Source: Nemertoderma westbladi
Taxonomy: Eukaryota > Animalia > Xenacoelomorpha
Length of the DNA stretch: 42,332 bases
NCBI GenBank assembly: GCA_032718475.1
Contig: JAUCBJ010002704.1
Coordinates: forward strand, 1 to 42,332
Direction of reading: 5' to 3'
Positions 17,130-41,514 of this stretch are shown here, in pieces. The notes under the pieces are model-generated. The model was not told the origin of the DNA and searched no databases. It saw only the letters and a list, made by a program, of their open reading frames with translations. How positions within the stretch are numbered: position 1 is the first letter of the stretch; each line of letters starts with the position of its first letter. A program made the position numbers and the translations under genes.

Positions 17130-17700
17130 TAATTTGTAGGCTTGACTGTTGGCTAACTGTTGATTAGGTCTGAACGGATTGCAGTGCATGTAGAGTGTAT
17201 GTCCGATAAAGAACGGTTAGGAAGTAGGGGCAGCCATAGCTGTAAGGTAAACCTCCATCTAAAGAATAAGTCGTACTACTGGGTTAGAACGCATACTACT
17301 TAACCATTTCGGAGTCTGCATGTCCTGTGGTTTATTTAGGCTTGATAGGAGTCCGCCAGCGTTTGGTCTGTACTTTGTTTGTGTAGTCTGTATGGGTAGC
17401 GTATAATTTTATTTAGATAATTTGTAGGCTGGATAGTTGTCTGGCTGCTGTTGTGTTTGAGGAAATTTCGGTGTGTGTAAAGCATCTGTCCGATAAAGAA
17501 CGGTTAGGAAGTAGGGGCAGCCATAGCTGTAAGGTAAACCGCCATCTAAAGAATAAGTCGTACTACTGGGTTAGAACGCATACTACTTAACCATTTCGGA
17601 GTCTGCATATACCGTAGTTTGTTTAGGCTTGATAGTAGTCTGTCAGTATTTGGTCTGCATTTTGTTTGAATAGTTTGTACGCGTAGCGTAATATTTATTA
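17130..17700 (+). repeat. Two ~287-bp leader repeats, each a long G.U-rich RNA stem-loop with a conserved 122-nt apex
   Basis: Cores 17200-17321 and 17487-17608 differ at 1 nt; the flanks are diverged in sequence but pair in both copies. Confidence 0.85.
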
Positions 17701-18649
17701 TTCAGAGTTTATGCGATTATTCGCAACATTCATATCCCCAAGTTTATTCCTACAGTAATTGTGTTTGTTATACATACCGTTATAGTTAAACTAACCCCGG
17801 TACTACATCAGGGCTGCTCGGCGTAGGTAAAGACTGGAGATTTTGTGCTTTGGTCACTCCGGCAGATACCGTGGTTCTTTTAGCTGTTCAAGTATTTTTA
17901 ACTACTAATTATTTGTTGTACAAGTACTTGTACCTAATTTAGGGTTTAGTGTACAGTACTTTCCGAAGGTAATTAGTGTGTAGGCAGTGTATTTGTGTTG
18001 TAAAGTGGTTAATAGGCACGTTGGTTCTGGTAGACCGCGGTAATTAACTTCTAGGTAGGGACACTCCATGATACATAACGTAGTACCTATAGCGATACGG
18101 TTATAGGTCGTCAGGCGGTGGTATTTTCCTATCTGGACAACGCAGTATATTTACTACTACTTATTATTTTCAAATACCGTAGTAACCTGTCCGTTGTAAT
18201 AACCAGATATTCTAACCCTTTGTTAGGCTGGTTAGTAGACTTCTTGTAAAATTACCCTAAAAATTCGTATTTGTGTATTTGTAATTAAAATTTTGTGTTT
18301 ATTTAGAGATTGTAATCTCAACCCGAATTGTACGTAATTTGTAGTATTAAGTAACTTAGGTAAATTAGAATTATTTGTTTTAGTGTCCAACAAGTAGCAC
18401 TCCACTGAGAGCGCACAGCTTATGTGTAGTGACTCCCCCAGAAATAATAACATTTATTTCAAACATTGACAAAACCCATTAAACGGGTATATATATATTA
18501 TAAATCAACTCAAACGATTTATAAATAGTAGGCCTGCCATATAACAATTAGGTCTCAATATCTGTTGGACTACTGCTCAAATAACGGCAATAAAGTAAGT
18601 TAAAGTAACCAAGTAACCCTTAAAATTCAGAAATTCAATTATTCTAAAA

Positions 18650-18910
18650 TAATTGACATACCGGTATTTACAATAGGCTTATTATATTTATTTCTATAAA
18701 TTTTAGGTTGAAATCATACCGGTATTCTGTAATTAATTCTAGTCTGTAATTATACTTATATATATACATTATAAGTGTAAACTACATACCGGTATCCACG
18801 ATAGGCCTATTATATATTTATATATTTGTGCTGAAATGATACCGGTATTCTGTAATTAACCTAGTCTGTAATAATACTTATATATACCCTAAGTATACCG
18901 GTATTCTAAT
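18650..18910. repeat. Five ATACCGGTAT palindromes at ~55-70 bp spacing within a ~120-bp duplicated unit upstream of gag
   Basis: Copies near 18658, 18716, 18786, 18839 and 18895. Confidence 0.8.
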
Positions 18911-19035
18911 ATTATATATCACGCTACACTGAGTAGCAGTATCGGTAATTAATTACTAGGCTAGCAGTTAAGGCTGAATTACTAAACTTGCTTAGACTGT
19001 AATATAGCAGTAGGCATTCAACTGTGTAAACAAAC

Positions 19036-21294
19036 ATGTCTGATACTAAGCAGAACCTGTCAGACAGTTTATTAGATGTAACTATCTGCGACTCAGATAA
19101 GGGTGTAGAACCGTCTAGTCCTAAATTCAGTTCACCTCCCACTGTGAGGAAAGTCATCCCTCCAGTAGTAATAACAGAACCTAGGCTGGTCCAACATCGT
19201 AGGTCTATCATAGGCACTCGAGCCCAGGTCAAGCGGGACCAAGAAGCAGCGGAACAGCAACAACCCGCGAGCCAAGAACTTATTTCTCAGCGGCCCGACA
19301 GCGCCAGTAGTGAAGATACTGTAGAGCTGACACCCGAGCGCGGAGCAAGGATGTCTGATGCGGTTTATTCGGATCCCCTTCTCATCCTTCCTGCAGCCGT
19401 ACTCACTAGGTTATTGATCGCGGTGGAAGAACACCAGATCGATTGGGCGAGAAGTAAGCGATCAACTAAAGATCGTTATGAGGGATACACAAGGGAAGAA
19501 CTGAAGTCTATGGTTGAGTCACAATGGAACTTCCCCGGACCCAGACTCCCGTTTGATTTATCAGAAGCTGCCTGGGAAGACATACACCGGATGGGAGTAG
19601 CCAAGGAAACCATCGATCCAGCTGTGTGGAAGAGGTCCGCAGCCGGATACGCACAGGGATTCTTCAGCTCTATGGAGCGAGTAGAAAAACAACTGTTTCA
19701 ACAACCTCAAGGACCTCAAGAGCAGGGACAACTGCTTTATCAAGTTAGAGAAAGAATTCTGCGAATCAGGCTAATATTATCAGCCTTTGAAGAAGCTTCT
19801 AAAAGAAAACAAGACATGTCGTTGCAAGTTGCCGTAAAGACTTGGTTTCAACGGGTGAGTCGCCAGGTTCAAGGAACAGCTCAGTGGAAAGCTCAGCTGG
19901 AGGAGCGCTCAACCCATGGAGAATCAACGGACACTACTTTTTCCCAAGTGGAAAGTGAAGCGACGGCAGAGAAACCGCATAAGAGGGATGCCATTGACAT
20001 CTATCTGTCAGACTATCAGCGTTTTTTGGGAGATGAAGAGTTGAGGAGAAGGCTAGATGGACTTAGCCCTAATAGTGAAGGAGCCCAGCGTGTGTTGGAT
20101 GCAATTGATGTGGATAGGTTAGTGGCGAACCAAGCTAAATTCGATGAACAACTCCGCATCGCTAGAGACCAAGAAGAAAGGGTGAAGAAAAAACGCATAG
20201 AAGACAGAAAGAAAGCAGCAGTAGCAGCTGCAGAAGCCGAAAGGAAAGCAGCCGAAGAGGAAAGTAAAGCAGCCGAAATGGAAAGAAAGGCGGCATCGGC
20301 AGCGGCAGAGGCAGAAGCGAAAAGAAAAGCAGCTGAAATGGAAAGAAAAGCGGCAATGGCAGCGGCAGAAGCAGAACGGATAGCGGCTGAAGAGATCGCC
20401 CAATTAGAATTGGAAAATATTCAGGAAAATCAAGACTGCATAAATAAACAGTTAACAGCTAGTAATATGCAGATGATGAATCGATCTACTCCCAAAAGAC
20501 AGGGATATACATCATCTGAGGAAGGCGATACCACCGATACTGAAGGCAAAGGAAATAGATCTCACCTAAGCCGACGTAAAAGAACATCCCACCGTCAGAA
20601 ATTGCCTGATTTGCCTCCAGCTGTTAGAAGGCAACTAAATAACACCAACTTAGGTAGTACAGAACCCACAGACCAAATAATTACAATAGAGAGACTCCCT
20701 ACTATAGTAGATGAGCCTGAAATAGTTAGGCCTGTTCCCGAAGCCACCCTTTCGGTCGTAGAGACACCTGTACTCCCTGAACCTACCTCTCAATTCCCGT
20801 TGCACAGCACTAAGCTACTTGTGCCCAGCAGAACAGCCCATGAGACAGTTCATGCCCTGGACTCCGAGCGAAATATTCATGATTTGTCGCCCGTTGTCCC
20901 TCGTCCACCCGCTACGACGTTGGCGGATCCCGTTTCGGCGGTTGATTGGGTGGACGAGAGACGGCGGGGGATGGACATTCTCCTCGAAAAGATGGAGGAG
21001 AATCGAGTACGCTCCTCCCAACAGGTCCGAGAGTTAGAAGGGACTGTTCAACAGTTAAAGGGAACCGTAAAGGAAAGTAGGTTAGAGTTGCAAGAAGTGC
21101 AGCAAAATATCGCGCTAGAACGTGATAAATTAGTAAATTTACAAAAGGGTATACCACCACCCCCTGTAACAATGTGTCAACCTGTTAGGTCTGAAGTATC
21201 TCATGCGCAAGGTGTGGAGCCTGCACGCATCTATACTGCTAGCGAAGTAGAAACTCCTATAGTGAACCCTATTAAGGGTAATTATAGATGTTGA
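19036..21294 (+). CDS. BEL/Pao Gag N-terminal region, 752 aa, coiled-coil and low-complexity; probably joined to the next ORF by a frameshift
   Basis: First long ORF of the element; AAEMERKAA-type A/E/K/R helical repeats and a C-terminal heptad region; the next frame is open from 21266, overlapping this stop. Confidence 0.8.
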   Translation: MSDTKQNLSDSLLDVTICDSDKGVEPSSPKFSSPPTVRKVIPPVVITEPRLVQHRRSIIGTRAQVKRDQEAAEQQQPASQELISQRPDSASSEDTVELTPERGARMSDAVYSDPLLILPAAVLTRLLIAVEEHQIDWARSKRSTKDRYEGYTREELKSMVESQWNFPGPRLPFDLSEAAWEDIHRMGVAKETIDPAVWKRSAAGYAQGFFSSMERVEKQLFQQPQGPQEQGQLLYQVRERILRIRLILSAFEEASKRKQDMSLQVAVKTWFQRVSRQVQGTAQWKAQLEERSTHGESTDTTFSQVESEATAEKPHKRDAIDIYLSDYQRFLGDEELRRRLDGLSPNSEGAQRVLDAIDVDRLVANQAKFDEQLRIARDQEERVKKKRIEDRKKAAVAAAEAERKAAEEESKAAEMERKAASAAAEAEAKRKAAEMERKAAMAAAEAERIAAEEIAQLELENIQENQDCINKQLTASNMQMMNRSTPKRQGYTSSEEGDTTDTEGKGNRSHLSRRKRTSHRQKLPDLPPAVRRQLNNTNLGSTEPTDQIITIERLPTIVDEPEIVRPVPEATLSVVETPVLPEPTSQFPLHSTKLLVPSRTAHETVHALDSERNIHDLSPVVPRPPATTLADPVSAVDWVDERRRGMDILLEKMEENRVRSSQQVRELEGTVQQLKGTVKESRLELQEVQQNIALERDKLVNLQKGIPPPPVTMCQPVRSEVSHAQGVEPARIYTASEVETPIVNPIKGNYRC

Positions 21295-21367
21295 TAATGA
21301 TATTCCCTATAGACCGGATCATAATCCGAGAAATTTATATACCGATAACTCGATATTAAATAACACG

Positions 21368-24300
21368 ATGGCCCAAGAAAGTTTCACGCGTCAAATGGCT
21401 AGAACCGAAGCCCGGCAAGCGGTAAAGGTGGGAGAGATCATCAAGTTCAATGGAGATGAGATGAAATGGTTACCTTTTAATGAATATTACAAAGATAACA
21501 TACAGAACTCTGTGCTATCTAATGGAGAGAAACTTAGATTCCTCATCGAGTGCTTGGAAGGATCTCCCAAGTTAATGGCGTTAAAGTTTATTGGACATCC
21601 TGACGGATTAAGACAAGTTTGGGATACACTAAACATCAGGTATGGTAATAGGAATAACATAGCTGGGTATTTGTATGCAAAGTTGGTAGCGCCCCGAAAG
21701 TTTATTAGCAGCGGAATTATAGAGTTTTCCGATGAGATTCAGGAGATCTGCAGACAATTAGATTGGCTAGGTAAGTCTCATGAGTATCAGAATGCTATGG
21801 TTATTAGAGCAGTGGCTTCTACTTTACCGAAGGGTGGAGTAGGTACACGCTGGGATAAGAAAGTGCTATATATGATGGAACAACAACGACGAGACCCTAC
21901 CATGGCTGATCTCATGTCATTCCTAGATGGAGAAGTGAAATTACAGCTCCTGAAACTGTCCAGAGAGAAGACACCGGAAAACAAGGTAATTGAAAAACCC
22001 GTCGCTAGGAGAAAGGTAACACCAGTGTGTTATACAGATGATGGCGAAAGCCAGACTTCTCAAGGAGAAGATAGCGGGAAAGACACTGATAGATCTTATT
22101 ACGTAAATAAAATGCCTAAAGATCAGGTAAATAAATTCAAGTCTCGAACAAATGACAGGAGAGAACAGGTAAGAAAAACTCCTCCTACGTCTCCCAAGAT
22201 AATTCAGGTGAGAAAGCCCGAAGAAAAAGCAAGTGTACACAATGTTACTCAGAGTAAAGTAAGTAACATCAAACCGAAATGTGCGCTATGTGATGGAACC
22301 CATCGCTTAAATATGTGTGATGAATTTCTAAAGAAATCTTTAACTGAGAGACGTGAAGTCATGTGGGACAAGCGGTTGTGCTATAATTGCCTCAGACAAG
22401 GACACCAACGGCGAACCTGTTACTCTGACACAAGATGTGCCAAGTGCGGTGCGAAACATCATATCTTGTTGCACACTGAATTCGAGCGAAATAGTCCGAG
22501 TCAGGTAAGTGATTCCAAACTACATGTTCAATTCAGTGATGTGAACGACACTGATCAATCTGAGATGGAAGGATTCTATACGGACGAATTCTCCGACGAA
22601 AACGAATCCTGTTACATGATAAATACCACAGTGTATCGAGCACTCATTTATGAAAAAGATACAGACATTGACCTCGCTCTAACTACTTCTGATCGACAAC
22701 CATCTTGGAAAGCGCCAACTTCCAATGTAGGGATTAGAGAATTTCCTGTGGTACAGGTAAGGGTCCACGGACCAAAAAGGAGTTATGTAGTGAACGCCCT
22801 CCTTGACTCCGGTAGTACAGGAACATTCATCGACAAAGAGCTAGCCGAAGACATATTCGCTGGACAACCCAAGTTCCGAACTAAGCTAAACATGTCAGGA
22901 ATTATGCAAGTTTGGAAATCCACAGTAACCGCGGATTATTATGTAGGTGTGTTGTCCACCCCCCAGGACGAACTAGGAGAACATAGCATAAGGTCAGTGA
23001 AAATGGTGGCTATAAAGAACTTCGCTACTACTCAAGCAGACCTTTATAATTGGGACGAGGATGAGAGCATCCAACATCTTAAGATACCTCGATTCCAGAC
23101 AGATTATCCTGGAGTGCAAATACTCATCGGCCAAAACGCGCATGAGGCGCTCGAGACATTGGAGAAACGACCTGCTCAACCGCAACCTCTACAAGTTTAT
23201 GCGGGAAGAACTAGAGTAGGTTGGTACTTTACTGGCCCTTCCCGTAGAACTCTAATGGAAAGATTACCGAAAGATCAGATATATCAAGCGCGAGAATGGG
23301 AAGTTGAGAACAGTGAGTTCGACGATCCAACTGAGGGAACTCCATACTCCTCAGACAACGACGATATACATCAACTTTTTGATGAGGAGAATGCCATCGA
23401 TCTCCTTAAGGAAAGCGAGACTTGGCAAAATCAAGTGAACTTATGTCAACTCCTTCACCCATCTGAGCGAGACGACTATAACGATGAGCTTAATGACGTC
23501 ATTGAACGTTATAATGCCAAGACTCGGGATGAACACGCTGTGAGATTTTTTACTCAAGAGGTCGTAGAGCCCAACTCCTACGATAAGGCCCTATCGGTGG
23601 AGGAAGAAAGAGCCAAGCAGATCCAAGCGACAACTACTCGTTTTCTTAAAGATCAAGGTAGGTATGAGATCGGACTTCCTTTCCAAAAGCGAGAACCAAA
23701 GTTCATTAACAACAGACCTTTGGCAGAGAAAAGAATTGCTCAACTACATCGACGCCTTACGGCAAATTCTTCAGCTAAAGAAATGTATAAAACACAGTTG
23801 AAGAAGTTTATTAGCAAGGGATATGCGGAGCTAGTACCGGAAGAAACCCCTATAACTGAGAGAACGTATTACTTAACTCACCATTACGTTCCCAAACCCA
23901 GTAAACCCCATGAAGTACGAGTGGTGTTTGACGGTTCCGCCCTCTATATGGGCCAATCCCTTAATTCTGAATTGTTACCCGGACCCAACTTACTCCAATC
24001 TTTGTTGGGAATATTATTAAGGTTAAGACAATACTCCATTGCTTTCGCCTCAGATATAGAAGGCATGTTCTTACAAGTCAAAGCGCTGGATAGGGATCGA
24101 GATAGCCTACGATTTTTGTGGTGGCCTGAAGGAGACCTCAATAAGAAACCGGTGGAGTACTGGATGACCATCCAAGCTTTTGGGATAATCTCGAGCCCTT
24201 CAAATGCCTGTTCCGTGGTACGCACCACTGCAGATGACAACCGAGACGCCTTCTCTAAAGAAGTGATCGACAATATCAAACGAGACATCTACATGGACGA

Positions 24301-25576
24301 TAATCTGAAGTCCCTTCCATCAGTCGAAGAAGTCATTGAGGTCGCTAAAGGAACGGTAGAATGCTTAAAGAAAGGTGGATTTCGATTAACTAAATTCACC
24401 AGCAACTCCCGTGAGTTTCTGGAGTCGATCCCGGTAGAAGATCGAGGAGCAAAAGACATAGATCTAATAAAGGATGATCTCCCAGAAACTAAGACCCTTG
24501 GTTTGAAATGGGACACAGAAAGATATATCCTGTTTTTCCAACTAAAACAGCGAGATAATCCAGTTCGGACTAAACGGATTTGTTTAAGTATCCTGAGCAC
24601 TTATTTCGATCCATTGGGATTTATTAGCCCAGTTATATTGATTGCTCGGAGTTTAGTACAACAAATGTGGCTTGAAAACCACTCATGGGACGATCCACTT
24701 AAGGGAGAATTATTAAAGAAGTGGATGAAATGGGAAGATTCTCTACCAGCCATCGAAAACTTCATAATTTCCCGTTCATATTTTGGTCATGTTCTCCCTA
24801 CGTATTCATATCAACTCCATGTGTTTGGAGACGCCAGCGATATGGGAATCGGTATAGTAGCCTACCTAAGGGTGGAAACTCCGGACGGAATTAAAGTCGC
24901 CTTGGTTACCTCTAAGGCATTGATAAACAACAAGTTAAAAGTTCCTCGAGCGGAGTTAAAAGCGGCTCTATACGCTACAGCTATCGGCCGGAATGTAACA
25001 GAACAGATCGACTATCCTCTGGAGAAAACTGTCTATTGGACCGACGCTTTACTCTTGTTGGAGTATATAACCAATGAAGTCTGTCAGTTCAGCGTCTTCG
25101 TTACCAACAGAGTAGCTATTATACTCAGTCGCACGACGATGGATCAATGGAGACATTGCCCCGGAACGATTAATCCAGCGGACATCGCTTCCAGGGGGGC
25201 AACTCCACAAGAACTGGTAGATACTCCAGACTGGTTAGGTGGACCCGACTTCCTCTACAAAGAAGAAGAAGAATGGCCTCCTCATCTTACTACAGCAGAA
25301 ATTAGACAGGCCAAGGGAGCGGAGAAAGTCAAACCTAAAACTCAGGCGAGTAAATCGAAGTTATTCAAACCCACAGTGGATCTGTCTGTACTACTTCCGG
25401 AGACGACGCTTTGGATCAGAAACCCACAGCCACAAATAAACCCGTTGTGGAAATCCGTGATAAGGATTGGATATCTGGCATACCAGACGTCTCGCAAGGA
25501 CTCTCACCTCTTCTGCAGAGAGCGATACATCACTACAGTTCCTGGAATCGGCTCTGTAAAGCCGTTACATATTTAA
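21368..25576 (+). CDS. BEL/Pao Gag core, zinc knuckles, protease, RT and RNase H
   Basis: KFNGDEMKW..KLRFLIECLEG (DUF1759-like); CALCDGTHRLNMC, CYNCLRQGHQRRTC, CAKCGAKHHILLH; LLDSGS; YLTHHYV..RVVFDGS..SLNSELLPGPNL..DIEGMFLQV..YMDD; FGDAS..PRAELKA..WTDA..NPADIASRG. True reading likely shifts frame near 25354-25400. Confidence 0.95.
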   Translation: MAQESFTRQMARTEARQAVKVGEIIKFNGDEMKWLPFNEYYKDNIQNSVLSNGEKLRFLIECLEGSPKLMALKFIGHPDGLRQVWDTLNIRYGNRNNIAGYLYAKLVAPRKFISSGIIEFSDEIQEICRQLDWLGKSHEYQNAMVIRAVASTLPKGGVGTRWDKKVLYMMEQQRRDPTMADLMSFLDGEVKLQLLKLSREKTPENKVIEKPVARRKVTPVCYTDDGESQTSQGEDSGKDTDRSYYVNKMPKDQVNKFKSRTNDRREQVRKTPPTSPKIIQVRKPEEKASVHNVTQSKVSNIKPKCALCDGTHRLNMCDEFLKKSLTERREVMWDKRLCYNCLRQGHQRRTCYSDTRCAKCGAKHHILLHTEFERNSPSQVSDSKLHVQFSDVNDTDQSEMEGFYTDEFSDENESCYMINTTVYRALIYEKDTDIDLALTTSDRQPSWKAPTSNVGIREFPVVQVRVHGPKRSYVVNALLDSGSTGTFIDKELAEDIFAGQPKFRTKLNMSGIMQVWKSTVTADYYVGVLSTPQDELGEHSIRSVKMVAIKNFATTQADLYNWDEDESIQHLKIPRFQTDYPGVQILIGQNAHEALETLEKRPAQPQPLQVYAGRTRVGWYFTGPSRRTLMERLPKDQIYQAREWEVENSEFDDPTEGTPYSSDNDDIHQLFDEENAIDLLKESETWQNQVNLCQLLHPSERDDYNDELNDVIERYNAKTRDEHAVRFFTQEVVEPNSYDKALSVEEERAKQIQATTTRFLKDQGRYEIGLPFQKREPKFINNRPLAEKRIAQLHRRLTANSSAKEMYKTQLKKFISKGYAELVPEETPITERTYYLTHHYVPKPSKPHEVRVVFDGSALYMGQSLNSELLPGPNLLQSLLGILLRLRQYSIAFASDIEGMFLQVKALDRDRDSLRFLWWPEGDLNKKPVEYWMTIQAFGIISSPSNACSVVRTTADDNRDAFSKEVIDNIKRDIYMDDNLKSLPSVEEVIEVAKGTVECLKKGGFRLTKFTSNSREFLESIPVEDRGAKDIDLIKDDLPETKTLGLKWDTERYILFFQLKQRDNPVRTKRICLSILSTYFDPLGFISPVILIARSLVQQMWLENHSWDDPLKGELLKKWMKWEDSLPAIENFIISRSYFGHVLPTYSYQLHVFGDASDMGIGIVAYLRVETPDGIKVALVTSKALINNKLKVPRAELKAALYATAIGRNVTEQIDYPLEKTVYWTDALLLLEYITNEVCQFSVFVTNRVAIILSRTTMDQWRHCPGTINPADIASRGATPQELVDTPDWLGGPDFLYKEEEEWPPHLTTAEIRQAKGAEKVKPKTQASKSKLFKPTVDLSVLLPETTLWIRNPQPQINPLWKSVIRIGYLAYQTSRKDSHLFCRERYITTVPGIGSVKPLHI

Positions 25577-27171
25577 AGAGATGTTTTCACCATCACTACT
25601 CTGGGATGAAAACAAAGGATGATACCGCTCCAATCACATCAGTGCAGGTCCATGTTATTAAAGACCTCCCTAAATATAAGGTACCCGACAAGTTTCTGAA
25701 GGAGAAGATCAGTTATCAGGAGCATGAAGAAACCAACAAACAGATGCTGAGACTCTTACAATGCTATGAAGATTCCGATAAGTATTTCCTGTTGTTGAGA
25801 AATCCACAGATGCGCTTAAGGGATCGTTTCTCTAGCACAATGATAGATGGGTTGATACGTGTTGGAGGAAGGTTAACGAATGCCCCATTATCCTTTGATA
25901 CTAAGTTCCCCATACTCATTAGAAATCTTGAAATACAAGTCAAGATGATTGTAGATGTTCACAGCAAACTTTATCATGCTGGTAGAGAACGAGTTCTTAG
26001 CGAAATTCGAACTCGCTATTATTTTTATAAACCCCGTAGAGCTCTGAACCAAGTTCTTAGGAACTGTATACCCTGTAGGAAAGCATTCAGTAGGCTTTTA
26101 ACACAGCGAGAGGCAGAATTACCTAGGGAACGAGTAAGCTTTTATGAACCACCCTTTACTAATACCGGTGTGGATTTATTTGGCCCTATTGAAGTATATC
26201 GTGCTAGGACTATAGTCAAGAGATGGTGTGTAATCTTTGTTTGTATGACTTGTAGAGCCATCCATCTCGATATGGTGAACGATTTATCTACCAACAGCTT
26301 TCTATTAAGCTTACGACGACAGATCGCTCGCTTTGGCACGAGTAACACGATGAGATCTGATAAGGGAACAAACTTCATTGGTGCCAACAATGAAATCAAA
26401 GCTTACGTCAAAGATTGGAACCAAAGACAGGTGGACGACCAACTACGAGTAACAGCGTCTAGTTGGACCTTCAACGCCGCCGACGCCCCTTGGTGGGGAG
26501 GAAGTTGGGAGAGATTAATAAGAAGCGTGAAGACAGCATTTCATTTTATAGTGCCTTGCCGCGCTTATCTCACCGACGAACTTTTGCGGACGTTAATGGA
26601 AGAAATCGCCGCCTATCTCAACGAGAGACCGCTTATGCCAGTCTCATCGAGTCCCGATTCCCTGGAAGCGCTAACACCCGCGCACTTCCTACTAAAGAAA
26701 CCTGTAGCCATGCTCCCACAATCGGAAATCACAGACGGAGACGAATACTGCCGACAAACTTGGCAACTCATGCAGTTGTTATCCCGTCGTTTCGCTGACC
26801 ATTTCGAAAAACATTATCTGCCCACGCTACAACTTCGAACTAAGTGGTTTGCGCAGCAAGAAAACGTTAGCGCTGGAGACATGGTTCTTATTGTGGATGT
26901 AGATCTTCCACGTAAGAGGTGGCAGACAGGTCGTATAATCGAGACACACATCTCGGATGACGGTTTGGTGGGATCGGTAGAACTCGTCGTCATGCGACGT
27001 AACTTCAAGAAACCGGGAATTGTCTTCGAGACGCAGCAGCTCAATCGCCCAGTGGGACGTTTATGTTTACTGGAAAGAGACAGAGAACTCTCCGGAAACT
27101 ATGGGAGACAAGATACTCTTCCCACGACCACCTCCCTAATCCAACAAACATCTAGGGACTCCCCAACTTAA
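25354..27171 (+). CDS. BEL/Pao integrase, in the -1 frame relative to RT/RH
   Basis: Frame open from 25354; YSSWNRL, GLIRVGGRL, H..H..CIPC zinc finger, GVDLFGP, SDKGTNF, WGGSWERLIRSVK, LNERPL, LTPAHFL and a DUF5641-like C-terminus. Confidence 0.95.
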   Translation: MEVIQTHSGSVCTTSGDDALDQKPTATNKPVVEIRDKDWISGIPDVSQGLSPLLQRAIHHYSSWNRLCKAVTYLKRCFHHHYSGMKTKDDTAPITSVQVHVIKDLPKYKVPDKFLKEKISYQEHEETNKQMLRLLQCYEDSDKYFLLLRNPQMRLRDRFSSTMIDGLIRVGGRLTNAPLSFDTKFPILIRNLEIQVKMIVDVHSKLYHAGRERVLSEIRTRYYFYKPRRALNQVLRNCIPCRKAFSRLLTQREAELPRERVSFYEPPFTNTGVDLFGPIEVYRARTIVKRWCVIFVCMTCRAIHLDMVNDLSTNSFLLSLRRQIARFGTSNTMRSDKGTNFIGANNEIKAYVKDWNQRQVDDQLRVTASSWTFNAADAPWWGGSWERLIRSVKTAFHFIVPCRAYLTDELLRTLMEEIAAYLNERPLMPVSSSPDSLEALTPAHFLLKKPVAMLPQSEITDGDEYCRQTWQLMQLLSRRFADHFEKHYLPTLQLRTKWFAQQENVSAGDMVLIVDVDLPRKRWQTGRIIETHISDDGLVGSVELVVMRRNFKKPGIVFETQQLNRPVGRLCLLERDRELSGNYGRQDTLPTTTSLIQQTSRDSPT

Positions 27172-27725
27172 AATGGCTGGAGTGGGTGTGTGACCATATT
27201 ATTTTATATTTGTATTTGTTTTATTTTTATATTTATGTATGTATTATTATGTAATTTTATTTTAATCGTTTTATTTAATTTTATTTAGTAACATGTTATT
27301 TTAGTGATCATTTAGTAGATTAGTGCAATATACTAGTGTTTATTACGTACGTAATTACTTATAATATATATTTAGTGCGACGGCGAGAAATAATTATTTT
27401 TCTCTTTCCTTACTGCCCGTATTACATTATCAATACGTGACTACAGTAAGATGAAATCTTCGTACTTATTAAAGTACAATAAAGCCACTACTATATTCAA
27501 GTATTATTGGTAGGCAGAGTATTAGGAATGCAAAGTTCAGATCCTCGTGTCTCGGCTAAACCAAGCTCTGGGTAGACCTTGGAAACGACTTGCCTCTTCA
27601 CACTGACATTGCTTCGTGCGATATTGCTCTCATACCGTATATTAAATAATACATATAGTAGCGTGATGTCCCTTTAACAGTAGCGTATAACGCAAATAAA
27701 TCTGTTAAACCCTTTGACCATCTGC

Positions 27726-27992
27726 AATTCTAGTCGATTAAGATATCGCGGCACCCACCGAATTACTTGAAAGACAAAATTCTAGAATCAATGGTTAACG
27801 TCCCCAGACAAGTTCTGGAATAAACTGGTGCCCATCCTAAATATTAATTATTAATATTTACAAAAATCTGTCAAATATCAGATCCTTTAAAATTCTAGTC
27901 GATTAAGATATCGTAGCACTTACCGATACTCTTAAAAAGACAAAATTCCTAGAATTAAGGATCCTATGTCCCCAGACACATTCTGGAATAAA
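27726..27992 (+). repeat. Duplicated ~100-bp structured unit in the post-pol region
   Basis: AATTCTAGTCGATTAAGATATCG...GACAAAATTC(C)TAGAAT...GTCCCCAGACA..TTCTGGAATAAA at ~27726-27825 and ~27891-27992. Confidence 0.8.
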
Positions 27993-28815
27993 ATTGTGTC
28001 TATTTAACTATCAAATAATAAAATTTACGGGAATAAATTTAAATTCATATATTTAAATGAATTTAATAAATTGCAATTTTATGCAATTTATAACATTCCC
28101 AAAATTCCATTAATTAATAGATCATGGGAGCGGAGATTCACTCTATTAAGTGTATTTGTGTGCGAGAATCTCCAATGCATAGTCAATAGCCGATAAAATT
28201 CATAGAATCATGTATAAAGGGGGTATTGACCATTAAAGAATTACTATTAAATAGCATCCCAGATCTGTATGCATGAGAATTACCCTAATTCTACCGCTAG
28301 CTCTCCATAATGTCACCATGGCAACTACCACGCTAGAATTAGAAGTGAGTTAAAAGAACAATAGAAAGCATGCCCCATTGGATAGCATAGGGAATAAATA
28401 GCGCACTGCTAGTATCCAAGGATACATAATAAATACAGTGACATTCTGGAAGGCACTGACTAACGGACAAATGGCCCGAATGTGTGCAGTTTGTTGCAGT
28501 TGTGTTGAATTTGTGCGTTTGTAGGTGAATGTTACTACTAAGGTGTGTTTACAGTAGCGAGTCGCAATTGTGAAAGTAACCCTAACTCTCCAAGAAGAAC
28601 CTGCAGTACATCTAAGCCTTTGGGACGGACAGTTAAGTGACTTGTGCCGGTTATCGTTGTCGTTGTGTAGCTACATCGTTGGCGAAAGCACAGCGATGAC
28701 GGTACATCGGCGCTGAGGATCTTACACTGTCCGGGGGCAAAAGAGGGGTAGGCAGCGACGCCCGCTAGCCTAATATATATAAACTCATTATAATATTGAT
28801 AAACTCATAGCAGAT

Positions 28816-29214
28816 ATGACTGAGTTGATAGAAGATGATCTTGGCATCAGGGAGCGATATACTCTACCTTTACAAGCGTTTGTCGATAGCTTGATACGCG
28901 GCGACGCTGGTCCAACTACTACGGAGGATGATGGTCGTTATATCGAACCGCCGATGTCCCCGGAGCAACTTACGCGTGAATTGGACTATAGAAAGTTCAC
29001 CGCTCGCTATACGCATCGTAATGGTACGTATATGGACTTCTTAACTACCGGCCACCCTATCGATTTACACGATACGGACGATGTGGATACCGAAAGGGAA
29101 ATGGTTTTATTTAAATATCATACCCAACGGAATCGGAACGATAAGCCAAGAATAGAACACGAGAACTCTATTCGAAATCAGCTCGAAAGAAAGAACGTGG
29201 ATGAAGGCTTGTAA
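28816..29214 (+). CDS. Accessory ORF, 132 aa, charged, unknown function
   Basis: ATG-initiated, protein-like composition, inside the LTR element; preceded by TATA-like TATATATAAA (~28774) and a possible acceptor TAGCAG. Confidence 0.55.
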   Translation: MTELIEDDLGIRERYTLPLQAFVDSLIRGDAGPTTTEDDGRYIEPPMSPEQLTRELDYRKFTARYTHRNGTYMDFLTTGHPIDLHDTDDVDTEREMVLFKYHTQRNRNDKPRIEHENSIRNQLERKNVDEGL

Positions 29215-30002
29215 AGACAAATATAGGAGAACCACTGGAGAAGAGACGTATGTTAATGTCCAGGGTCCATAATGTGAATAGTTTTCCCCGGGGCACGGGT
29301 GCTCGCGGGCGGTCTCCTTCGGGAGGCTGTAAATTTCTCTTCCCTCATCGTTTTCTTGTAATTCTTGTGATCAGTGTCACAATTAAAAGACAAGAATGAA
29401 TGATGACGTGACGGAAAACTGGTCCATTGTGGTATCTTATGGATACTACCCTATATCCTCCCTCCTCTTTACTCCCTTTATCCCTCTATACATCACTATT
29501 GAAAATACAACCCACTTCGTCACACCTTCTCTTCCCAATGCGCTCGGAACTTTGGGAGACGATCGACCAATCCTAGTTGTATCGTGGTATGAATCATACC
29601 GCCTCCTAATAAATCTCCCCACCCTTTACTGTTTATTTGTATGCTCATATTGGTGACCTCACCTCTTGTCCATGTACCATTCTGTTGATATTTATGATAT
29701 CAACTTCCACCCTCTCGTTGTTGATTAGAAAATCAACCACCAATGATTTCCTTAAGTCCACAACCGTGATACAAGGACTGAAAGGACACGCGGATAGTTT
29801 GTGAACAACTGGTACCATTATGTGTCATAAATCTGGTTGTTCACCCCCTAATCACTGGGGATAAATTCATTTGGAGATAGTCATCGAATGATGCAATCCT
29901 CCTACTGAGATCGTATTTCGGAATATTTCTGAATATGACATAGGTCTTCCCCTGCTCTCTACCACTACCATCAATGGAGACCTACAGAACGACTTTCGGA
30001 AT

Positions 30003-31778
30003 ATGGAGAACATTCCATACCCCTTCGTTGATACTCAGCTGATTGCTCCTTGGGCAGAAGGCCGAGGTTTCTTCCGCACTATGTATGCCAATACACCCAG
30101 CGGAATTACTAAAGTACAAAGAACCTCCATCGGACATCTTGCCTTTCAAGAATACGGATGGAATTTCAAGGTTGGAAATCCTATAAATTACCAACAAGTA
30201 TACGGAGATCATTATTCTCGTTTATACTTTGATGGACCATTGACCGCACCTGGCGCCGTGTATAGCTTTATGAGTGTTCCACTTCGTCCCTCCTTAGCTA
30301 TATACACGATCTTTGAAAACGCAGCACTTGCCGGTTGGCTAGCCGATGTGTGCAGTCGTACCATACGCGCCCATCCCTTAATACTTGGAACCAAACTCGC
30401 CAAGTTAGATGAACACAATAAATTCATCCGCTTTGAATGTTTCAGGCGCTTTCTGACTCCGTTCCGTAACGTTGATAGTCAGTTCAAGGACCGCGCTCTG
30501 ACCAAACTCAGCCTGAGAGACTCAGCGGCGGAGAAACTAAACAGCGCGGGATTTGCCCTTTTTCAGGACGTTTGTATACAGAACTTGCACTCATCTGTTA
30601 TACAAAGACCCCGAATACCCACGGGTTATTCTGTCGTCGAAGTTCAGACAGTGGGTCCGCTTGCGGAGACAGCCGCACCTACCTCAGCTATGCAATTGGA
30701 AGACGAACTAATATGCTTAGAAGCTGAATCGATTCAACCTACAGCACCCCGGAGCAGCGATAACGACTACGTCTTAGAGTGGTATCAAGGTCCACAATGT
30801 CTCACCGCATACGATTATCGACACGCTAACTATGTTTCTCGAAAACGTTGTCGATTATGCGCATCGAGAGACCATTTTACTCCTATGGACTCAGACGTAC
30901 CCTGTTCCTATTTCCACGAACAACCAATGATGGAGATATATTGTGCGTATTGCAGACTTAATAACTCTCATATTTTTGCAGTCTGCCCCCAATTTATGAC
31001 TCAATGCCACCACTGTCAACTTAAAGGAAATGCCAGTTATAATTGCCCCTTTAATCACGATTTAGAGAGCGTAGATGAAATGATTACCCTGCGCTACATC
31101 CGAGCTTGGGAAGCGAACGCGGATTTACATTGTGAGTCCCGTCATCGATACTACCCTGGACGCTCTTACGAGGGAGTTTACGCGTTCCATCCTTATTTAT
31201 TAGCGTCTGTGGAACAAAAAACACGCATACCGAGTTACGAGCTAATGAAGCGTGTTGGTGAGTGTATTTCCACTAAATTTGTTAGAAGATACCTTAGGAA
31301 CGTCAATCCTAACGATATTACTTCATACCATTTGATCAATTATATCCGTCAAGACCCTGAGTATGGCGACTTATTTATCAACTCGCACCCTGAGTTGCAA
31401 GAAGTATCTCGACGGCCCTACGAATATCGAGCCCGAGAACGCGAGCTGGAAAGAACTATTAAACCAAGGAAGTTTCTTACCACCCACGGTCCGCCTACCG
31501 CCATTGCCCAGACAACCCGTCAAGGACCCGTAGGAGCTGCTGTCCTGAGGCGCGCCCTAAAGGCTGTTAGACCTCGCTCCACGGAAGTTGATATCGATCA
31601 ACCAGGTACCTCGACCGGCGGATACACCGATCGCAATCCGACACCTTCTGATGCAATTGTATTGCACCCTTCACCCAGGAGTTACAGCCCTCCTAGTAAA
31701 GTGGCTCGCCCCAAAGAGAAAAGGACTCTTGCTAGCCTCAAAAAACTGCGTAAACGCCGTCCGCGTAAGAAAGACTAA
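30003..31778 (+). CDS. Accessory ORF, 591 aa, three Cys/His knuckle-like motifs and basic NLS-like tail; not Env
   Basis: CRLCASRDH..C, CAYCRLNNSHIFAVC, CHHCQLKGNASYNC; C-terminal KKLRKRRPRKKD; no evident signal peptide or TM helix; frame open from 29892; ends 78 nt before the 3' LTR. Confidence 0.85.
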   Translation: MENIPYPFVDTQLIAPWAEGRGFFRTMYANTPSGITKVQRTSIGHLAFQEYGWNFKVGNPINYQQVYGDHYSRLYFDGPLTAPGAVYSFMSVPLRPSLAIYTIFENAALAGWLADVCSRTIRAHPLILGTKLAKLDEHNKFIRFECFRRFLTPFRNVDSQFKDRALTKLSLRDSAAEKLNSAGFALFQDVCIQNLHSSVIQRPRIPTGYSVVEVQTVGPLAETAAPTSAMQLEDELICLEAESIQPTAPRSSDNDYVLEWYQGPQCLTAYDYRHANYVSRKRCRLCASRDHFTPMDSDVPCSYFHEQPMMEIYCAYCRLNNSHIFAVCPQFMTQCHHCQLKGNASYNCPFNHDLESVDEMITLRYIRAWEANADLHCESRHRYYPGRSYEGVYAFHPYLLASVEQKTRIPSYELMKRVGECISTKFVRRYLRNVNPNDITSYHLINYIRQDPEYGDLFINSHPELQEVSRRPYEYRARERELERTIKPRKFLTTHGPPTAIAQTTRQGPVGAAVLRRALKAVRPRSTEVDIDQPGTSTGGYTDRNPTPSDAIVLHPSPRSYSPPSKVARPKEKRTLASLKKLRKRRPRKKD

Positions 31779-31847
31779 CTGTTTAGAGTATTTTTATATT
31801 TTAGAAACTGTGATTTGTTATATTTTATAGACTTAAATCCCATTTTC

Positions 31848-31856
31848 TGGGAGCGG
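31848..31856 (+). promoter_or_regulatory. Polypurine tract TGGGAGCGG
   Basis: Purine-rich run directly before the TG of the 3' LTR. Confidence 0.8.
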
Positions 31857-33025
31857 TGTAAAAGCTTTTGCGTCATTAACCGGTTATTTTCCCTTAAAGT
31901 ACTCTGTAGTTGGTTTGCCAGGCATAAAAAGGCCGTGTCCTTGCTGTACTGGTGTTTTAGAGGACATAAAAGTCATTTCTTCTGTATTTGTACTGTATTT
32001 GTACTTTAGAGGACATAATCCGCAATCTCGTGACGCGATAAGCTAGATACTCTTGAAAACAGTGTCGCTACCATGACGACGGCTAACAGCTGATATTGCC
32101 ACGTCGACATTTCTTTGTTTCTTTGTTCTCTAGTTGTTCGGTTGACCAATCAGAGCGTTTTTTGTCTCTGTGTTGGAGGTGTATACAGAACTCAGTAGTT
32201 CAGTGTGTTGTTTTTGCCCAGAGCCTAAGAACATCGGCTTTTGGCACCTCCGTATATCAGCATTCTTTAGCTTTACATTAGTAGGCTTAATTATAGAACG
32301 TATATCTGTTATCAATGCAATTCATACAAATCAAACCAATTATATGTAATTCATATCTTACATTACTGCTTTTACTGTTGGTTATTCGTTATATTTGTTG
32401 ATGAAATATTATATTGGAATACTGATCAATAGTCAGACACCCCACCTTCTTGATATACTAAAGGTTAGAGAGACCGGTTACAGATAAACGATTGCGACCT
32501 ATGTTGAGTGGTTTGAAGTGAATCTAATGCTATTTCATATGCCCAACATAAATTGTCTGTTGCTCTCTTTATACGTGACTAAATTTAGTGAAGGTCGGCA
32601 GATTAGTGTGCAGTATTGTGCAGCATTGTGTATGATTGTAACTGATAACAAAGCATCTCCTAAAGAATGCGCCATATACATAAATCTATAGCCTTTTCGT
32701 TGTGTCTGGTTTAAGTCATAACTCTGTTTACATATTTAGAGCGCCACGTCCTAAAGGAACTGTTAATATTTCCCGAAAGTGAATAATATTTGTCAGAGAT
32801 TATATATTACGATCAGTCGAATAATACGGTAGGCTTACACTATCAATCATTAAGCTCCGAACTCAGTCTCCCGGGTATATCCAACGGGTGAATGATTGCG
32901 CATAGACTGGCTTCGGCTAATGTAGTGTATCAAATACTCGTCATAAAGCTAAAGAATATATATCATCTAAAAGACATTCTAATTTTGGCAGGTTAAACTG
33001 TCAAAGGTCTTCAAAAGCGCAAACA
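31857..33025 (+). repeat. 3' LTR (1169 bp)
   Basis: Copy of 15678-16846, followed by the GAAGT TSD. Confidence 0.97.
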
Positions 33026-33030
33026 GAAGT

Positions 33031-33810
33031 CGAGGAAATCTTGCGAAGTACCTAACTGATCTAGACTTTGGTGATAATTTAGGAGTACTTTCAGAATCAC
33101 TATTTTTAGAGTTAACTTTGAAAGATCTCCACAAGTCTCTGATCGGATGAGCATAAGCTCAAAGGATGGTATGCTTGAGCATGTGGACGACTTCTGTTAC
33201 CTGGTATCATGGATCCGGAAGTCAGGTGAGGACCTTCGAATACGCAAGGGAAAGGCATGGCAGCCTTGAATAGGCTTTCCAGGATTTGGAAGTCACCGAG
33301 AATTAATTGGAAACTGAAGGTCCGATTATTTAGAGCAGCAGTAGTTCCAGTACTCCTCTATGGGAGTCCATGCTGGGCTCTAACTGCTGAGGACACAAAA
33401 TCTCTGGATGGCACATTCACAAGAATGCTACGCCGGGTACATTTTTTCATTGTGTCAAGTACAATGCACACATCTCCAACCAGACACTATATAACATTGG
33501 AGGTGTCTCATTGGTTCCCCCAAGCTCGGCACTAGAACAAAATCGCCTCCGCTTTACAGGACATTGCTTTTGCCGTGAGGACCAGCTAGTGCATAATCTT
33601 CTACTTTGGCAGCCTCATGGAGTGAATACGCATGGTGGACAGCCCATGACTTTCTTGAGACGCATCTTAAAGGACACTGGCCTTGAAGATGCGGATGATC
33701 TATCAAATGTCATGGGTGATAGGGAGTTGTGGCGGCGCAATTTTGTCGACAAGCCGGCACAGCATTCTTAAAAATGCAGCTGCAATGCAGCATGCCGATT
33801 CTAGTAGTAG
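33031..33810 (+). mobile_element. RTE-clade LINE, right part (RT C-half, C-terminus, 3' UTR, (TAG)n tail)
   Basis: Continues PPTGSRS with RGNLAKYLTDLDFGDNL (degenerate FADD); VDDFCYL, LKVRLFRAAVVPVLLYG, RLRFTGHC, LLLWQP, MGDRELWR; GCTGCAATGCAGC inverted repeat; ends CTAGTAGTAG. Confidence 0.92.
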
Positions 33811-34302
33811 TACTGACTCATCCAAACTCCTCTCTCGGGATGACCAGGCAGCGTTGAAAATCCTGAACGAGTCTACCACACACGTCAATGGCCACTACCA
33901 GAACTCTCATCTGTGGAAATTTAAAGTTGCGCTTCACCCAACAACTACGAGATGGCGAAATGGGGGCGTAATGCGTCGCGTAAACAGGATCGTTAAACTT
34001 GTCGAGCAGTATACTCGGAACCTTCTCGGTTATGTCAATCGGGATTTCACTGAGAAGGTCCCTGCGGATCAACTCGATGGCCCCCAGGTACCTCTCCCAC
34101 CATCCCGTGTTTCATCCACAGAAAGACAAAAGGCATATTGTGTTTAACGCCTCCACCTGCTACAGCCGGATATAGCTCAACGACACAGTTTATCGGGGCC
34201 CCGATTACCTTTCCAGTTTGGTCGTGATGCTGCTCCGGTTCAAACAAAACTCGTTCGCCGTTTCCGGAGACATTAGCGCCATGTACCACCAGGTTCGAGA
34301 CC
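33811..34302 (+). mobile_element. Old BEL/Pao pol fragment, right part (RT N-terminus), starting with the right 54-bp TSD copy
   Basis: LSRDDQAALKILNESTTHVNGHY, YLSHHPVFHPQK, IVFNAS, SLNDTV..GPDYLSSLVVMLLRFKQ..AVSGDISAMYHQV across frameshifts. Confidence 0.85.
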
Positions 34303-35222
34303 ACCTTCGCCCCAGTTCAACCACCTCACACCCATACCCGCTTGATTGATTGTCGTGATCGTGACGCTCACCATACTGACAGTATCCTGACGGTATATTG
34401 TATCATGTGTGTACACAGTTCCCCGGCGTAAATGCTATATCATGTATATTTCTGCAGCTCGATCGGTGATCATTTATATATATTTTCTCCCAATTTGTGC
34501 TCTTACTTATTAATTTCATTTATTATTGTTACCCGTGAATATCGTGCATTTTTTATGTTACATTTTGTAATGGATTAAACAAATATATATTGTGAACAAT
34601 GGTGAATTTTGTGTTATTTCTTCAGAATTCGGAAAAACCATGTGGTGTGTAATACTATTTCTAAAATTGGTAACTCGGTTTACTGTATTGCAAAATACTG
34701 AATTACGTGATTTTATTGCAGTATTCTCCTGAGATTTTGAGTGTTGTCCCCACACGTTTGCCTGTTTTCTTGCGACCTGCCGGCGAAATGCGGAAGAACC
34801 GAAACCTGGCTGAATTACTTTTCGGATTACGATCTACTGTTATTTTAACTGTTATCACAAATCATGACCTACTATAGATACGACCCGCCAAACTGCTGCA
34901 AAGCCCATAAACTTAGTGGGCCAGTTATTGCTCTTAGATAGAACCCCTGAAAGAATATGTCTAGCGCGTCGAAAGTTATTGTTCCTAACTAAAATTATGT
35001 CCTCTATCAAATGAGACAAATAAAAATGCAATAGCTCAAGTTGTTGTCGAGATGTGAGGAGTTCCTGGCACCCATACCATATCAGCACTTTTCGGAATTG
35101 ATAAAATTACTCAAAATACATCACCCTTCAAGACTTTGGTATAACCATTAAACCAATATTATGCTTTATTGGTTAGTCGAATTAATTATTAGTAATCGAA
35201 AGCGAAATTAGAATAAAATCTT

Positions 35223-36960: not shown

Positions 36961-37483
36961 ACAAATAGAAAAAATTGACTAATAACTAATATATCAACAT
37001 GCCTAGGTTGTTGTTATACAGTATTACACAACTCTTCGATATGCTTGATGCAGGTAGAGGAATAAACCTTCCCAAAGAAATCAGCACATTCTAAAACCTT
37101 AGTAGCCAAACTGTGTGGCCAATTTACCACGTTTGAAAAAAGTGCTACTTGCACTTTTGGTGCTCTTTTAGTTTATATTGATAAAAAAAATGAAAATGTT
37201 GCTTCTAATCTTGCTTTCGATTACTAATAATGAATTCAACAAACCAAAAAAGCATAGTATGGTTTAATGGTTATACCGAAGTCTTTGAAGGGTGATGTAT
37301 TTTGAGTAATTTTATCAATTCCGAAAGATATGGTATGGGTGCCAGGAATGCCTCATATCTCGAAAACTTACTGGAGTTGTTAATTTTTTATTAGTCCCAT
37401 CTGAAAGAGGACATAATTATAGACGCGAATATAAAACCTATCCCAAATTAGGTATTTATAAAATCAATCACTGTTAAAAAATA

Positions 37484-40402: not shown

Positions 40403-40530
40403 ATACAGAACAAGCCATCTTGCTGTTCCCATAGGTCGGTATTTTATTACCACTGTTTTCTTTTCCTTAAATGTTTTCCTAGTGTTTTACTGTTTTACTA
40501 ATTGAGAACTTCAGCCCTTATGGACAGAAA

Positions 40531-40781
40531 TACTACTAGGATCGGCATGCTGCATTGCAGCTGCATTTTTAAGAATGCTGTGCCGGCTTGTCGACAAAAT
40601 TGCGCCGCCACAACTCCCTAACACCCATGACATTTGCTAGATAATCCGAATCTTTAAAGCCAGTGTCCTTTAAGATGCGTCTCAAGAAAGTCATGGGCTG
40701 TCCACCATGCTTATTCACTCCATGAGGCTGACAAAGCACAAGATTATGCACTGGCTGTTCCTCACGGCAAAAGCAATGTCC
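40531..40781 (-). mobile_element. 3' fragment of the RTE LINE with (TAG)n tail
   Basis: HNLVLCQPHGVNKHGGQPMTFLRRILKDTG..ELWRRNFVDKPAQHS plus the 3' UTR; reverse complement of ~33559-33812. Confidence 0.9.
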
Positions 40782-41514
40782 AGAAATAGCAGACGCAGAC
40801 AGGATTGTATCTATAAAAAAACCTCATAATACAGATACGCGTTATTACAGAGGGTCTAGGGGACAGTTCAAAGTATTATTGGGTGAATAACAATAAATAA
40901 TTATTCGTGATTAAAATGTTACTGATAAATAAATATAGCTCATCAGTAATTTATCTCTTCGAAGTACAAGGCGTAAATCTCAATAAAATCCAAGTAAGAT
41001 ATTCAAGCCATGCCATTAGTTAAATAGCAGGAATGAAGATTGCTAGTCCATTGTCTAGTGCATTGTGGACTTTTGATTGTTCACAATTTCGTTCAAATAA
41101 CTAAATAAATCCTCTATAATAAAAACTATCGAGACAAAATGAATCGATATTTTACAGTAAAAGTTTGACCAACTGTATCGTAAAGTTAGCTTGAGGTTCA
41201 AGTTAAAGTTAACTTGATCATAGAATATAAATATATTATTACATTATTAAAAACATTAACAATACACAAAACTGTACTAAAGGTATTGTCTAAGCTTAAA
41301 ATGACATTGCGTACACGTAGGTCGTACATTTTACAGTAATTACAGAACACAGTAAATTTATTTTTAACCTTAAAAGGTTATAAATTCTTTATTTTAAATA
41401 AGTTAATATAATAAATAATTACAGTATATAATATTATTAATTAATAATAATAATAGCCTTACAGCCGACATTCCAATTTATTTCTTATTGAATTTATTTA
41501 TTTGCTTATTAAAG

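Follow-up and report, generated by a model that had tools for sequence, protein, structure and literature searches.

The 42,332-nt contig JAUCBJ010002704.1 of Nemertoderma westbladi (assembly GCA_032718475.1), whose whole length is the window to which all coordinates below refer, carries a 17,348-bp retrotransposon with long terminal repeats (LTRs) at 15678-33025, which its sequence assigns to the BEL/Pao superfamily. Between the integrase and the 3' LTR, on the plus strand at 30003-31778, lies an open reading frame (ORF) coding for a protein of 591 amino acids (aa). This ORF is very probably a genuine accessory gene that is borne by the element, is kept under purifying selection and does not encode an envelope protein (Env). 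An initial annotation of this DNA had already proposed a real non-Env accessory gene, and the proposal is borne out by purifying selection in the family, by the lack of likeness to the element's own Gag and by the absence of a detectable homologue among host genes and transposable elements. The ORF had also been described as intact and as situated at the env position. Indeed, the frame is open throughout 30003-31778 and its start codon has a favourable Kozak context (A at -3, G at +4), 2.8 kb past the integrase stop (27171); it ends 78 nt ahead of the 3' LTR (31857).

Selection, sequence anatomy and homology of the 591-aa ORF

Data on the family were taken from public sequencing runs. Six runs of four studies match part of 27200-31850, three of them with more than half of the words, and runs X1, X3, X4, and X5 were aligned on 29900-31856. 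X5, which may be an RNA run, carries a different organism label and was used for neither expression nor cross-species presence. The aligned contigs number 9,210 in X1, 3,195 in X3, 197 in X4, and 41 in X5, many of them less than 90% alike, and the ORF belongs to a high-copy, internally diverse family. Cover increases ~15-fold at the bin that contains the ATG and is low over the spacer upstream. The linkage of the ORF to the 3' end of the element is provided by one divergent X4 contig of 1,162 bases, which joins the ORF body, its tail, and the bases ahead of the polypurine tract.

Of 502 variant sites, 40 were available, and the 39 that fall within the ORF were classified. Among these 39, 29 are synonymous, whereas the same base changes would be expected to give 11.3 (P = 1.7e-9), 10 change a residue, and none introduces a stop, which corresponds to a crude omega of 0.14. 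When the same listed sites are read in the other two frames, only 4/39 and 3/39 are synonymous, and the integrase, used as a positive control, has 16 synonymous changes among 20 listed variants. Six indels are listed, three of them in the ~180 flanking bases; inside the 1776-bp ORF, a single X5 contig has two that compensate each other and a single X4 contig has an insertion. In the two deep runs, no indel that shifts the frame reaches a 10% share within the ORF, and ORF copies that have diverged to 74-85% identity retain the frame.

The predicted protein consists of an N-terminal region (residues 1-200), an acidic linker (200-265), a knuckle region (283-348), a helical region (~355-486), and a Pro/Ser/Arg-rich tail. 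In agreement with the initial annotation, which had seen neither signal peptide nor transmembrane segment, hydropathy reveals no membrane or signal-like segment (the best 19-residue Kyte-Doolittle mean is 1.19 and the best N-terminal 10-residue mean 0.69), and the same holds with the upstream in-frame extension added. N-glycosylation sequons are limited to two, both inside the knuckles, and the cysteines are grouped as CxxC. The protein ends in KKLRKRRPRKKD, the basic terminus that had been pointed out before (aa 573-591, 31719-31775); nine of the last 12 residues are K or R, and the stretch matches a bipartite nuclear localization signal (NLS) pattern, as a pattern match only. AlphaFold without an alignment reached a mean predicted local distance difference test (pLDDT) score of 33.6 for the whole protein and 42.5 for residues 270-494. 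The N-terminal ~190-200 aa score 25-45 in this single-sequence prediction, which does not confirm the globular look ascribed to them initially, and the helical region is the sole part with values of 50-68.

The knuckle region holds CX2CX4HX9C (motif 1, aa 283-301, 30849-30905), CX2CX5HX4C (motif 2, aa 314-328, 30942-30986), and a third knuckle (aa 335-348, 31005-31046) that reads CX2CX4NX4C here and CX2CX4HX4C in other copies. The patterns given initially for the second and third motifs are correct, but no version of motif 1 with the X8 spacing reported at the time exists. By a loose pattern, CX2CX3-5[HN]X4-9C, chosen post hoc after viewing the protein, at least three matches occurred in 0 of 100,000 residue shuffles and two matches in 8; as judged by this sequence test, the three knuckle-like motifs exceed chance. 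The Asn in place of the expected His in knuckle 3 had been noticed as well. It is present in this copy but is no trait of the family, as all aligned depth in all four runs has a His codon at position 343. Asn343 is a defect of this copy, and the knuckle reading is strengthened because the family copies carry His in knuckle 3 and thus the canonical CX2CX4HX4C of CCHC knuckles; knuckles 1 and 2 are spaced differently. Among the 10 listed residue changes, none removes a Cys or His ligand and one puts back the His that this copy lacks. Five sites are private to this copy (differing in at least 99.6% of the depth in both deep runs), and four of the five change a residue, as would be expected from decay after insertion.

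Sequence searches retrieved no homologue of the 591-aa protein. Pfam gave no match for the whole protein, and the best match of its pieces, zf-CCHC_3 in the knuckle region, stays below the cut-off (E 0.022); PHROGs gave no match. Word-based searches found none among 5,329 candidates of near length and, for residues 1-500 against shorter lengths (longer lengths were not searched), none among 908. Likewise, phmmer over 1,835,955,588 cluster representatives yielded no matches, the best E among PDB sequences was 0.55, and the pattern matches in metagenome contigs (0/54) and viral contigs (0/4) contained no counterpart. An exact look-up of a protein collection found none of five window proteins. 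No F, gB or Gc glycoprotein matched by sequence (Pfam, PDB, cluster representatives), nor did Pfam or the databases return a capsid, RRM, Gag or long interspersed nuclear element (LINE) ORF1 family. An origin as a copy of the element's own Gag was rejected, with a best E of 0.89 and a knuckle spacing unlike that of the BEL triple box (PMC554778).

A comparison set of 80 BEL/Pao loci from metagenomes, 31-41% related to the element and including several near-duplicates, gave no tblastn match at E up to 1 for the 591-aa ORF or for the 132-aa and 752-aa ORFs of the same element described below. Long knuckle-bearing ORFs downstream in four of the 80 loci are neighbouring gag-pol genes (DUF1759) and not counterparts. 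In L010, L012, L054, and L067, a BEL/Pao element is followed on the same strand by a second BEL/Pao gag-pol (tandem or nested arrays).

The nearest clusters in a language-model comparison (Atlas) are CCHC-array proteins, with a best score of 0.86 that serves as a lead only (scores are below 0.9 and the recognition of 1735 is below the informative level); residues 1-205 had no usable match. Fold searches on a low-confidence model were uninformative: Foldseek found no match at E 0.001, and VIA-align reached a best Z of 5.0 with generic helical bundles; the N-terminal part lay outside these searches.

The element, its second accessory ORF and its non-coding regions

Two LTRs of 1169 bp each (15678-16846 and 31857-33025) with TG...CA ends delimit the element. 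The insertion is recent and the element young, because the LTRs are near-identical (2 of 1169 bases differ) and a 5-bp target-site duplication flanks them (15673-15677 and 33026-33030). A LINE-type reverse-transcriptase (RT) fragment is interrupted by the element (RVT_1, E 1.4e-8 on 15348-15677), and this decayed frame resumes past the 3' LTR (15348-15677 and 33026-33150). All features of the element are on the plus strand. The 2.2-kb leader (16847-19035), with a ~288-bp duplication inside, is followed by a 752-aa ORF with charged helical repeats (19036-21294), by the Gag core with protease, RT and RNase H (21368-25576; DUF1759, triple Cys-His box, LLDSG...LIG, YMDD, DAS), and by the integrase frame (25354-27171; HHCC, D-D(49)-E, DUF5641). 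A purine-rich 9-mer occupies the polypurine-tract position preceding the 3' LTR (31848-31856). In this copy the frame of the 752-aa ORF differs from that of the Gag core; the ORF likely is the N-terminal part of Gag, a reading based on the 330-680 aa that other BEL loci have ahead of DUF1759. The gag-pol of this copy has two frame breaks, at 21266-21294 (from the 752-aa ORF to the Gag core) and at 25354-25576 (from RNase H to integrase), for which decay, assembly error or a programmed shift are all possible. Three runs contain a joint that leaves out 1,712 bases and most of the integrase (25329-27042), with sides of only 20-25 letters, possibly a deletion derivative.

On sequence grounds the element belongs to BEL/Pao (Belpaoviridae, genus Semotivirus). 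Its Gag has an intact triple Cys-His box (at aa 305, 338, and 357 of the 21368 ORF), a character defined for BEL/Pao as CX2CX3-4HX4C, CX2CX2-4HX4-5C, CX2-4CX3HX4H (PMC554778), and protease, RT, RNase H and integrase (PR-RT-RH-IN) are arranged in this order with Pao-specific profiles. The Pfam matches comprise DUF1759 (E 1.8e-10), Peptidase_A17 (E 3.6e-36), DUF5641 (E 9.6e-19), and Integrase_H2C2 (E 1.4e-7). The LTR length lies within 0.2-1.2 kb, and a target duplication and a polypurine tract are present. With 17,348 bp and two extra ORFs the element falls outside the descriptive range of 4.2-10 kb and one to three genes, which is not a phylogenetic criterion. The lineage is unsampled in databases, because integrase identities do not exceed 35-42% among the best 120 of 603 relatives listed; the best of these come from records of fish, echinoderms, crustaceans and molluscs and from unnamed records. 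The gap between the integrase stop (27171) and the 3' LTR measures 4,686 nt. Among the 80 BEL/Pao loci a 3' LTR was detectable in 26; it starts 45-653 nt past the integrase match in 25 of these, and in the remaining one the distance is 1,992 nt without any ORF of 100 aa.

The same gap contains a second accessory ORF (28816-29214) for an acidic protein of 132 aa (pI 4.9) with no transmembrane segment and no Pfam or PHROG match. All five of its listed variants are synonymous (1.4 expected, P = 0.0015), and it is a second selected gene in the same cassette. This ORF and the helical region that follows the knuckles in the 591-aa protein (about 355-486) were both missed by the initial annotation. 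Upstream lies a strongly folding AU-rich non-coding region (27672-28140) with a ~140-bp duplication, a candidate cis-acting RNA element, of which the part at 27880-28140 has a z of -5.9 (0 of 200 shuffles fold as well). The first 254 nt of the leader also fold better than shuffles (z -3.6). Rfam produced six weak matches, none at the gathering score, and no tRNA gene was found. Hairpins at 29272-29340 were set aside, their z of -5.2 in one 150-nt window falling to -0.1 when refolded as 126 nt. A weak TATAAA occurs at 28778 inside a 20-bp tandem duplication. Because the start of the 591-aa ORF is preceded by 18 ATGs downstream of the 132-aa ORF, the 591-aa ORF would need its own (subgenomic) or a spliced message; a strict splice-acceptor scan near the ORF start found nothing. 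The unspliced RNA of the element would be ~16 kb long, with kilobases of AU-rich structured non-coding sequence.

At the primer-binding position (16847-16857), 11 bases are exactly complementary to 16123-16133 in the LTR, for which 0.0015 matches are expected per LTR. This self-complement seems to stand in place of the 18-nt tRNA-Arg or tRNA-Gly primer site of BEL/Pao; no TGG directly follows the LTR or occurs within 17 bases of it, the first being at offset 17 past the 5' LTR. Because these 11 bases pair exactly with the LTR, the site is a candidate for self-priming of the Tf1 type (mechanism in PMC4600332), and among the papers listed by one literature search no report of self-priming in BEL/Pao was seen. 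The polypurine 9-mer has two matches in the window as against 0.15 expected: a second polypurine-like site at 28125-28133 is an exact copy of the nine bases preceding the 3' LTR and may be a second plus-strand priming site or be left over from an earlier 3' end. Complex retroviruses are known to have a second, internal polypurine tract.

Elsewhere in the window, 6054-10045 is a tandem satellite of 63 bp (63 copies, 95% matches), in which a minus-strand ORF of 334 aa is repeat read-through. Dispersed and inverted repeats at 33554-33815, 40525-40786, 2478-2600, and 34989-35213 with 37203-37422 likely are ends of DNA transposons or of miniature inverted-repeat transposable elements.

Proposed role of the protein and alternative explanations

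As the best, though tentative, explanation, the 591-aa protein may be a trans-acting nuclear RNA-binding factor that promotes export or survival of the element RNA, by analogy with CERV of the Cer1 element or with Rev of HIV. A separate subgenomic message would supply the protein, the three CCHC-type motifs likely would bind RNA (with zinc, as predicted), and the basic tail is predicted to carry the protein into the nucleus. There it would bind the long unspliced element RNA and help it to be exported or to escape from decay, with the strongly folding non-coding region at 27.7-28.1 kb or the leader as candidate targets. Its action would be in trans, on shorter and more numerous copies in which these non-coding regions, but not the ORF, seem to be retained. 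An RNA of ~16 kb, as compared to 4-10 kb in the family (PMC8742986), counts for an export factor. A further-reaching and doubtful, though possible, extension is that the element represents a new kind of complex BEL/Pao element, in which a self-primed 17-kb genome would be combined with a two-gene regulatory cassette (the 132-aa acidic and the 591-aa knuckle protein) acting in trans on the structured RNA of deleted copies.

Several points weigh against an accessory gene with this nuclear role. The mechanism rests on motifs and analogy, because neither sequence nor structure links the protein to CERV, Rev or any characterised protein. CCHC knuckles also bind proteins and single-stranded DNA, and the motif alone does not imply RNA binding. 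The message for CERV is spliced and has sequence in common with gag, so that CERV is not expressed from the env position. Four loose matches to nuclear export signal patterns, a type common by chance, include no convincing export signal. The selection figure rests on 39 of 502 sites, and the frame of the ORF is shifted in one X4 contig, which accounts for ~30% of the depth at that site. Finally, many copies seem to lack the ORF. The summed depth of X1 across 31616 increases from 131,000 to 825,000 and 1.8 million, and that of X3 and X4 behaves similarly; the rise from 31616 on is 4- to 14-fold in X1, X3, and X4, with loose ends there in three runs, where contigs join other sequence. Although depth reflects copy number poorly, this suggests that a more numerous form may keep only the last ~240 bases, or ~55 codons, of the ORF. 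The depth drops after 29241, and there is a hint that the abundant form retains the non-coding region upstream, the 132-aa ORF, and the 3' end. On visual inspection, 12 letters of the longest loose end at 31616 recur where the 132-aa ORF ends (29175-29186); this word, picked after the fact, has one match in the window where 0.01 are expected. Loss from many copies fits a trans-acting product but also a dispensable one. The initial annotation had named absence of the ORF from other family members as evidence that would speak against its proposal: thousands of contigs of the family do contain the ORF, but the commoner form may retain no more than those last ~55 codons.

Among the alternatives, an anti-silencing factor is somewhat unlikely. 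Such a protein would block small-RNA, chromatin or nuclear-exosome silencing by the host from within the nucleus, for example as a decoy of Air1/2-type knuckle adaptors. It would share the anatomy and the selection on which the export factor draws, and the very high abundance of the family (9,210 contigs on 2 kb in X1) and the AIR2-like knuckle clusters among the weak Atlas matches (0.76) are consistent with it; trans action would account for the loss from many copies. However, these Atlas scores are below 0.9, with the recognition of 1735 below the informative level, and no sequence match to Air/ZCCHC proteins was obtained. We regard as unlikely an extra nucleocapsid-like chaperone, which would be packaged and would assist the folding or copying of an RNA of this great length, self-priming at the non-tRNA primer position included. 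Three knuckles and basic regions are established nucleocapsid anatomy, and the primer position that pairs with the LTR over 11 bases without a TGG start and the second polypurine-like site point in the same direction. However, an intact triple Cys-His box is already provided by Gag, a bipartite basic tail points to a nuclear location, and most of the 591 aa are unlike a nucleocapsid.

Improbable to the same degree is the capture of a host gene or of the Gag or ORF1 of another element, kept for a role outside nuclear RNA handling. A helical region, knuckles, and a low-complexity basic tail make up a common Gag/ORF1 layout. The host proteome seems unsampled (0 of 5 window proteins in the collection, integrase identities of 35-42%), so that a donor confined to this lineage could have escaped the searches. 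LTR elements are documented to capture foreign ORFs (PMC5408684, PMC5177903, PMC6431247). On the other hand, none of the 1.84 billion representatives, neither of the two word-based searches, and no Gag/ORF1 family in Pfam provided a match, the protein does not resemble the element's own Gag in sequence, and its knuckle spacing is unlike that of the BEL triple box (PMC554778). A recent host capture in particular is unlikely, because the copies that keep the frame are diverged (74-85% identity), whereas an old one from an unsampled donor is possible. A diverged envelope or other protein for cell-to-cell spread would suit the env position of the ORF, where BEL/Pao elements have captured fusogens (PMC13524379). 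This origin is highly improbable given a protein without signal-like or membrane segment and without fusogen match by sequence, whose only two sequons lie in knuckles and whose cysteines form CxxC groups. Hardly credible, and largely refuted by the strong synonymous bias and the preserved frame, is a non-functional passenger or chance open frame, even with no homologue, a poor structure prediction, and the seeming absence from many copies in its favour.

Relation to other LTR elements and implications

According to the profile issued by the ICTV, BEL/Pao elements measure 4.2-10 kb and have at most an env-like third gene (PMC8742986). The extra genes known from the literature consulted are fusogens, such as the F-like protein of Roo and the Chuviridae-like gB of mosquito elements (PMC13524379), and env genes are described for Tas and Cer7 (PMC554778; PMC3118150). 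The premise of the initial annotation that extra ORFs in BEL/Pao are envelope-like thus mostly stands (PMC13524379, PMC8742986, PMC554778) but is not absolute, as the Bursaphelenchus element demonstrates (PMC5177903). No maintained non-Env zinc-knuckle ORF in BEL/Pao was reported in the literature searched, which excluded most subscription journals and Repbase. With other BEL/Pao elements, the element of N. westbladi shares the triple Cys-His Gag box, the LLDxG/LIG protease, YxDD in RT, DAS in RNase H, the D-D(49)-E integrase, the order PR-RT-RH-IN, LTRs with TG...CA ends, and the 5-bp target-site duplication (PMC554778). It differs in its length (17.3 kb vs 4.2-10 kb), in the two selected non-Env ORFs past the integrase where others have none or an env-like gene, and in that a primer site of the tRNA type seems to be missing just past the LTR (PMC8742986).

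The eBxnv-1 element of Bursaphelenchus xylophilus is also a Bel/Pao element with non-Env ORFs, namely a nodavirus RNA-dependent RNA polymerase and an unknown ORF (PMC5177903). However, it is degenerate and a recent capture, whereas the 591-aa ORF has spread through a high-copy family under selection. In the Gypsy/Ty3 element Cer1 of C. elegans, CERV is an element-encoded orphan protein of 517 aa with a Cys-rich loop or putative zinc finger, a candidate NLS, and flexible linkers that join its three domains; this nuclear protein is required for the export of Cer1 genomic RNA (PMC10309623). In contrast to the 591-aa protein, CERV belongs to another superfamily, its spliced message shares gag sequence, it has a C4-type loop and a G-like domain, and the two proteins show no sequence likeness. 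Complex retroviruses have accessory ORFs near the 3' LTR, too (Rev and Tat of HIV, Tas and Bet of foamy viruses), but the element described here has no env and no sequence relation to them, and its regulatory role is putative. Gypsy-like and foamy-like lineages are known to include ORF3s other than env and large elements rich in accessory genes (PMC5408684; PMC6431247; PMC2774666). Foamy-like fish elements reach 17 kb via accessory ORFs (PMC6431247), and ORF3s typically are expressed from spliced messages (PMC5408684). The ORF3s that bdelloid rotifer LTR elements carry in place of an envelope gene (GDSL esterase, DEDDy exonuclease) and the extra ORFs of Ogre and Burro occur in Gypsy-like lineages and mostly encode recognisable enzymes, whereas the protein found here is an unrecognised knuckle protein in BEL/Pao.

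How BEL/Pao elements replicate and are regulated is poorly understood, and captured envelopes are their only well-known extra genes. A selected orphan knuckle gene together with a small ORF, in a recently active and very successful family, offers both a protein and candidate RNA targets for addressing how long retrotransposon RNAs of invertebrates are exported from the nucleus or elude silencing, and whether control of the Rev type has arisen more than once. Should the protein prove to antagonise silencing, it would point to the host pathway under pressure. If the proposed complex organisation of the element is true, a Rev/Tat-like layer would have evolved independently in the least studied LTR superfamily.

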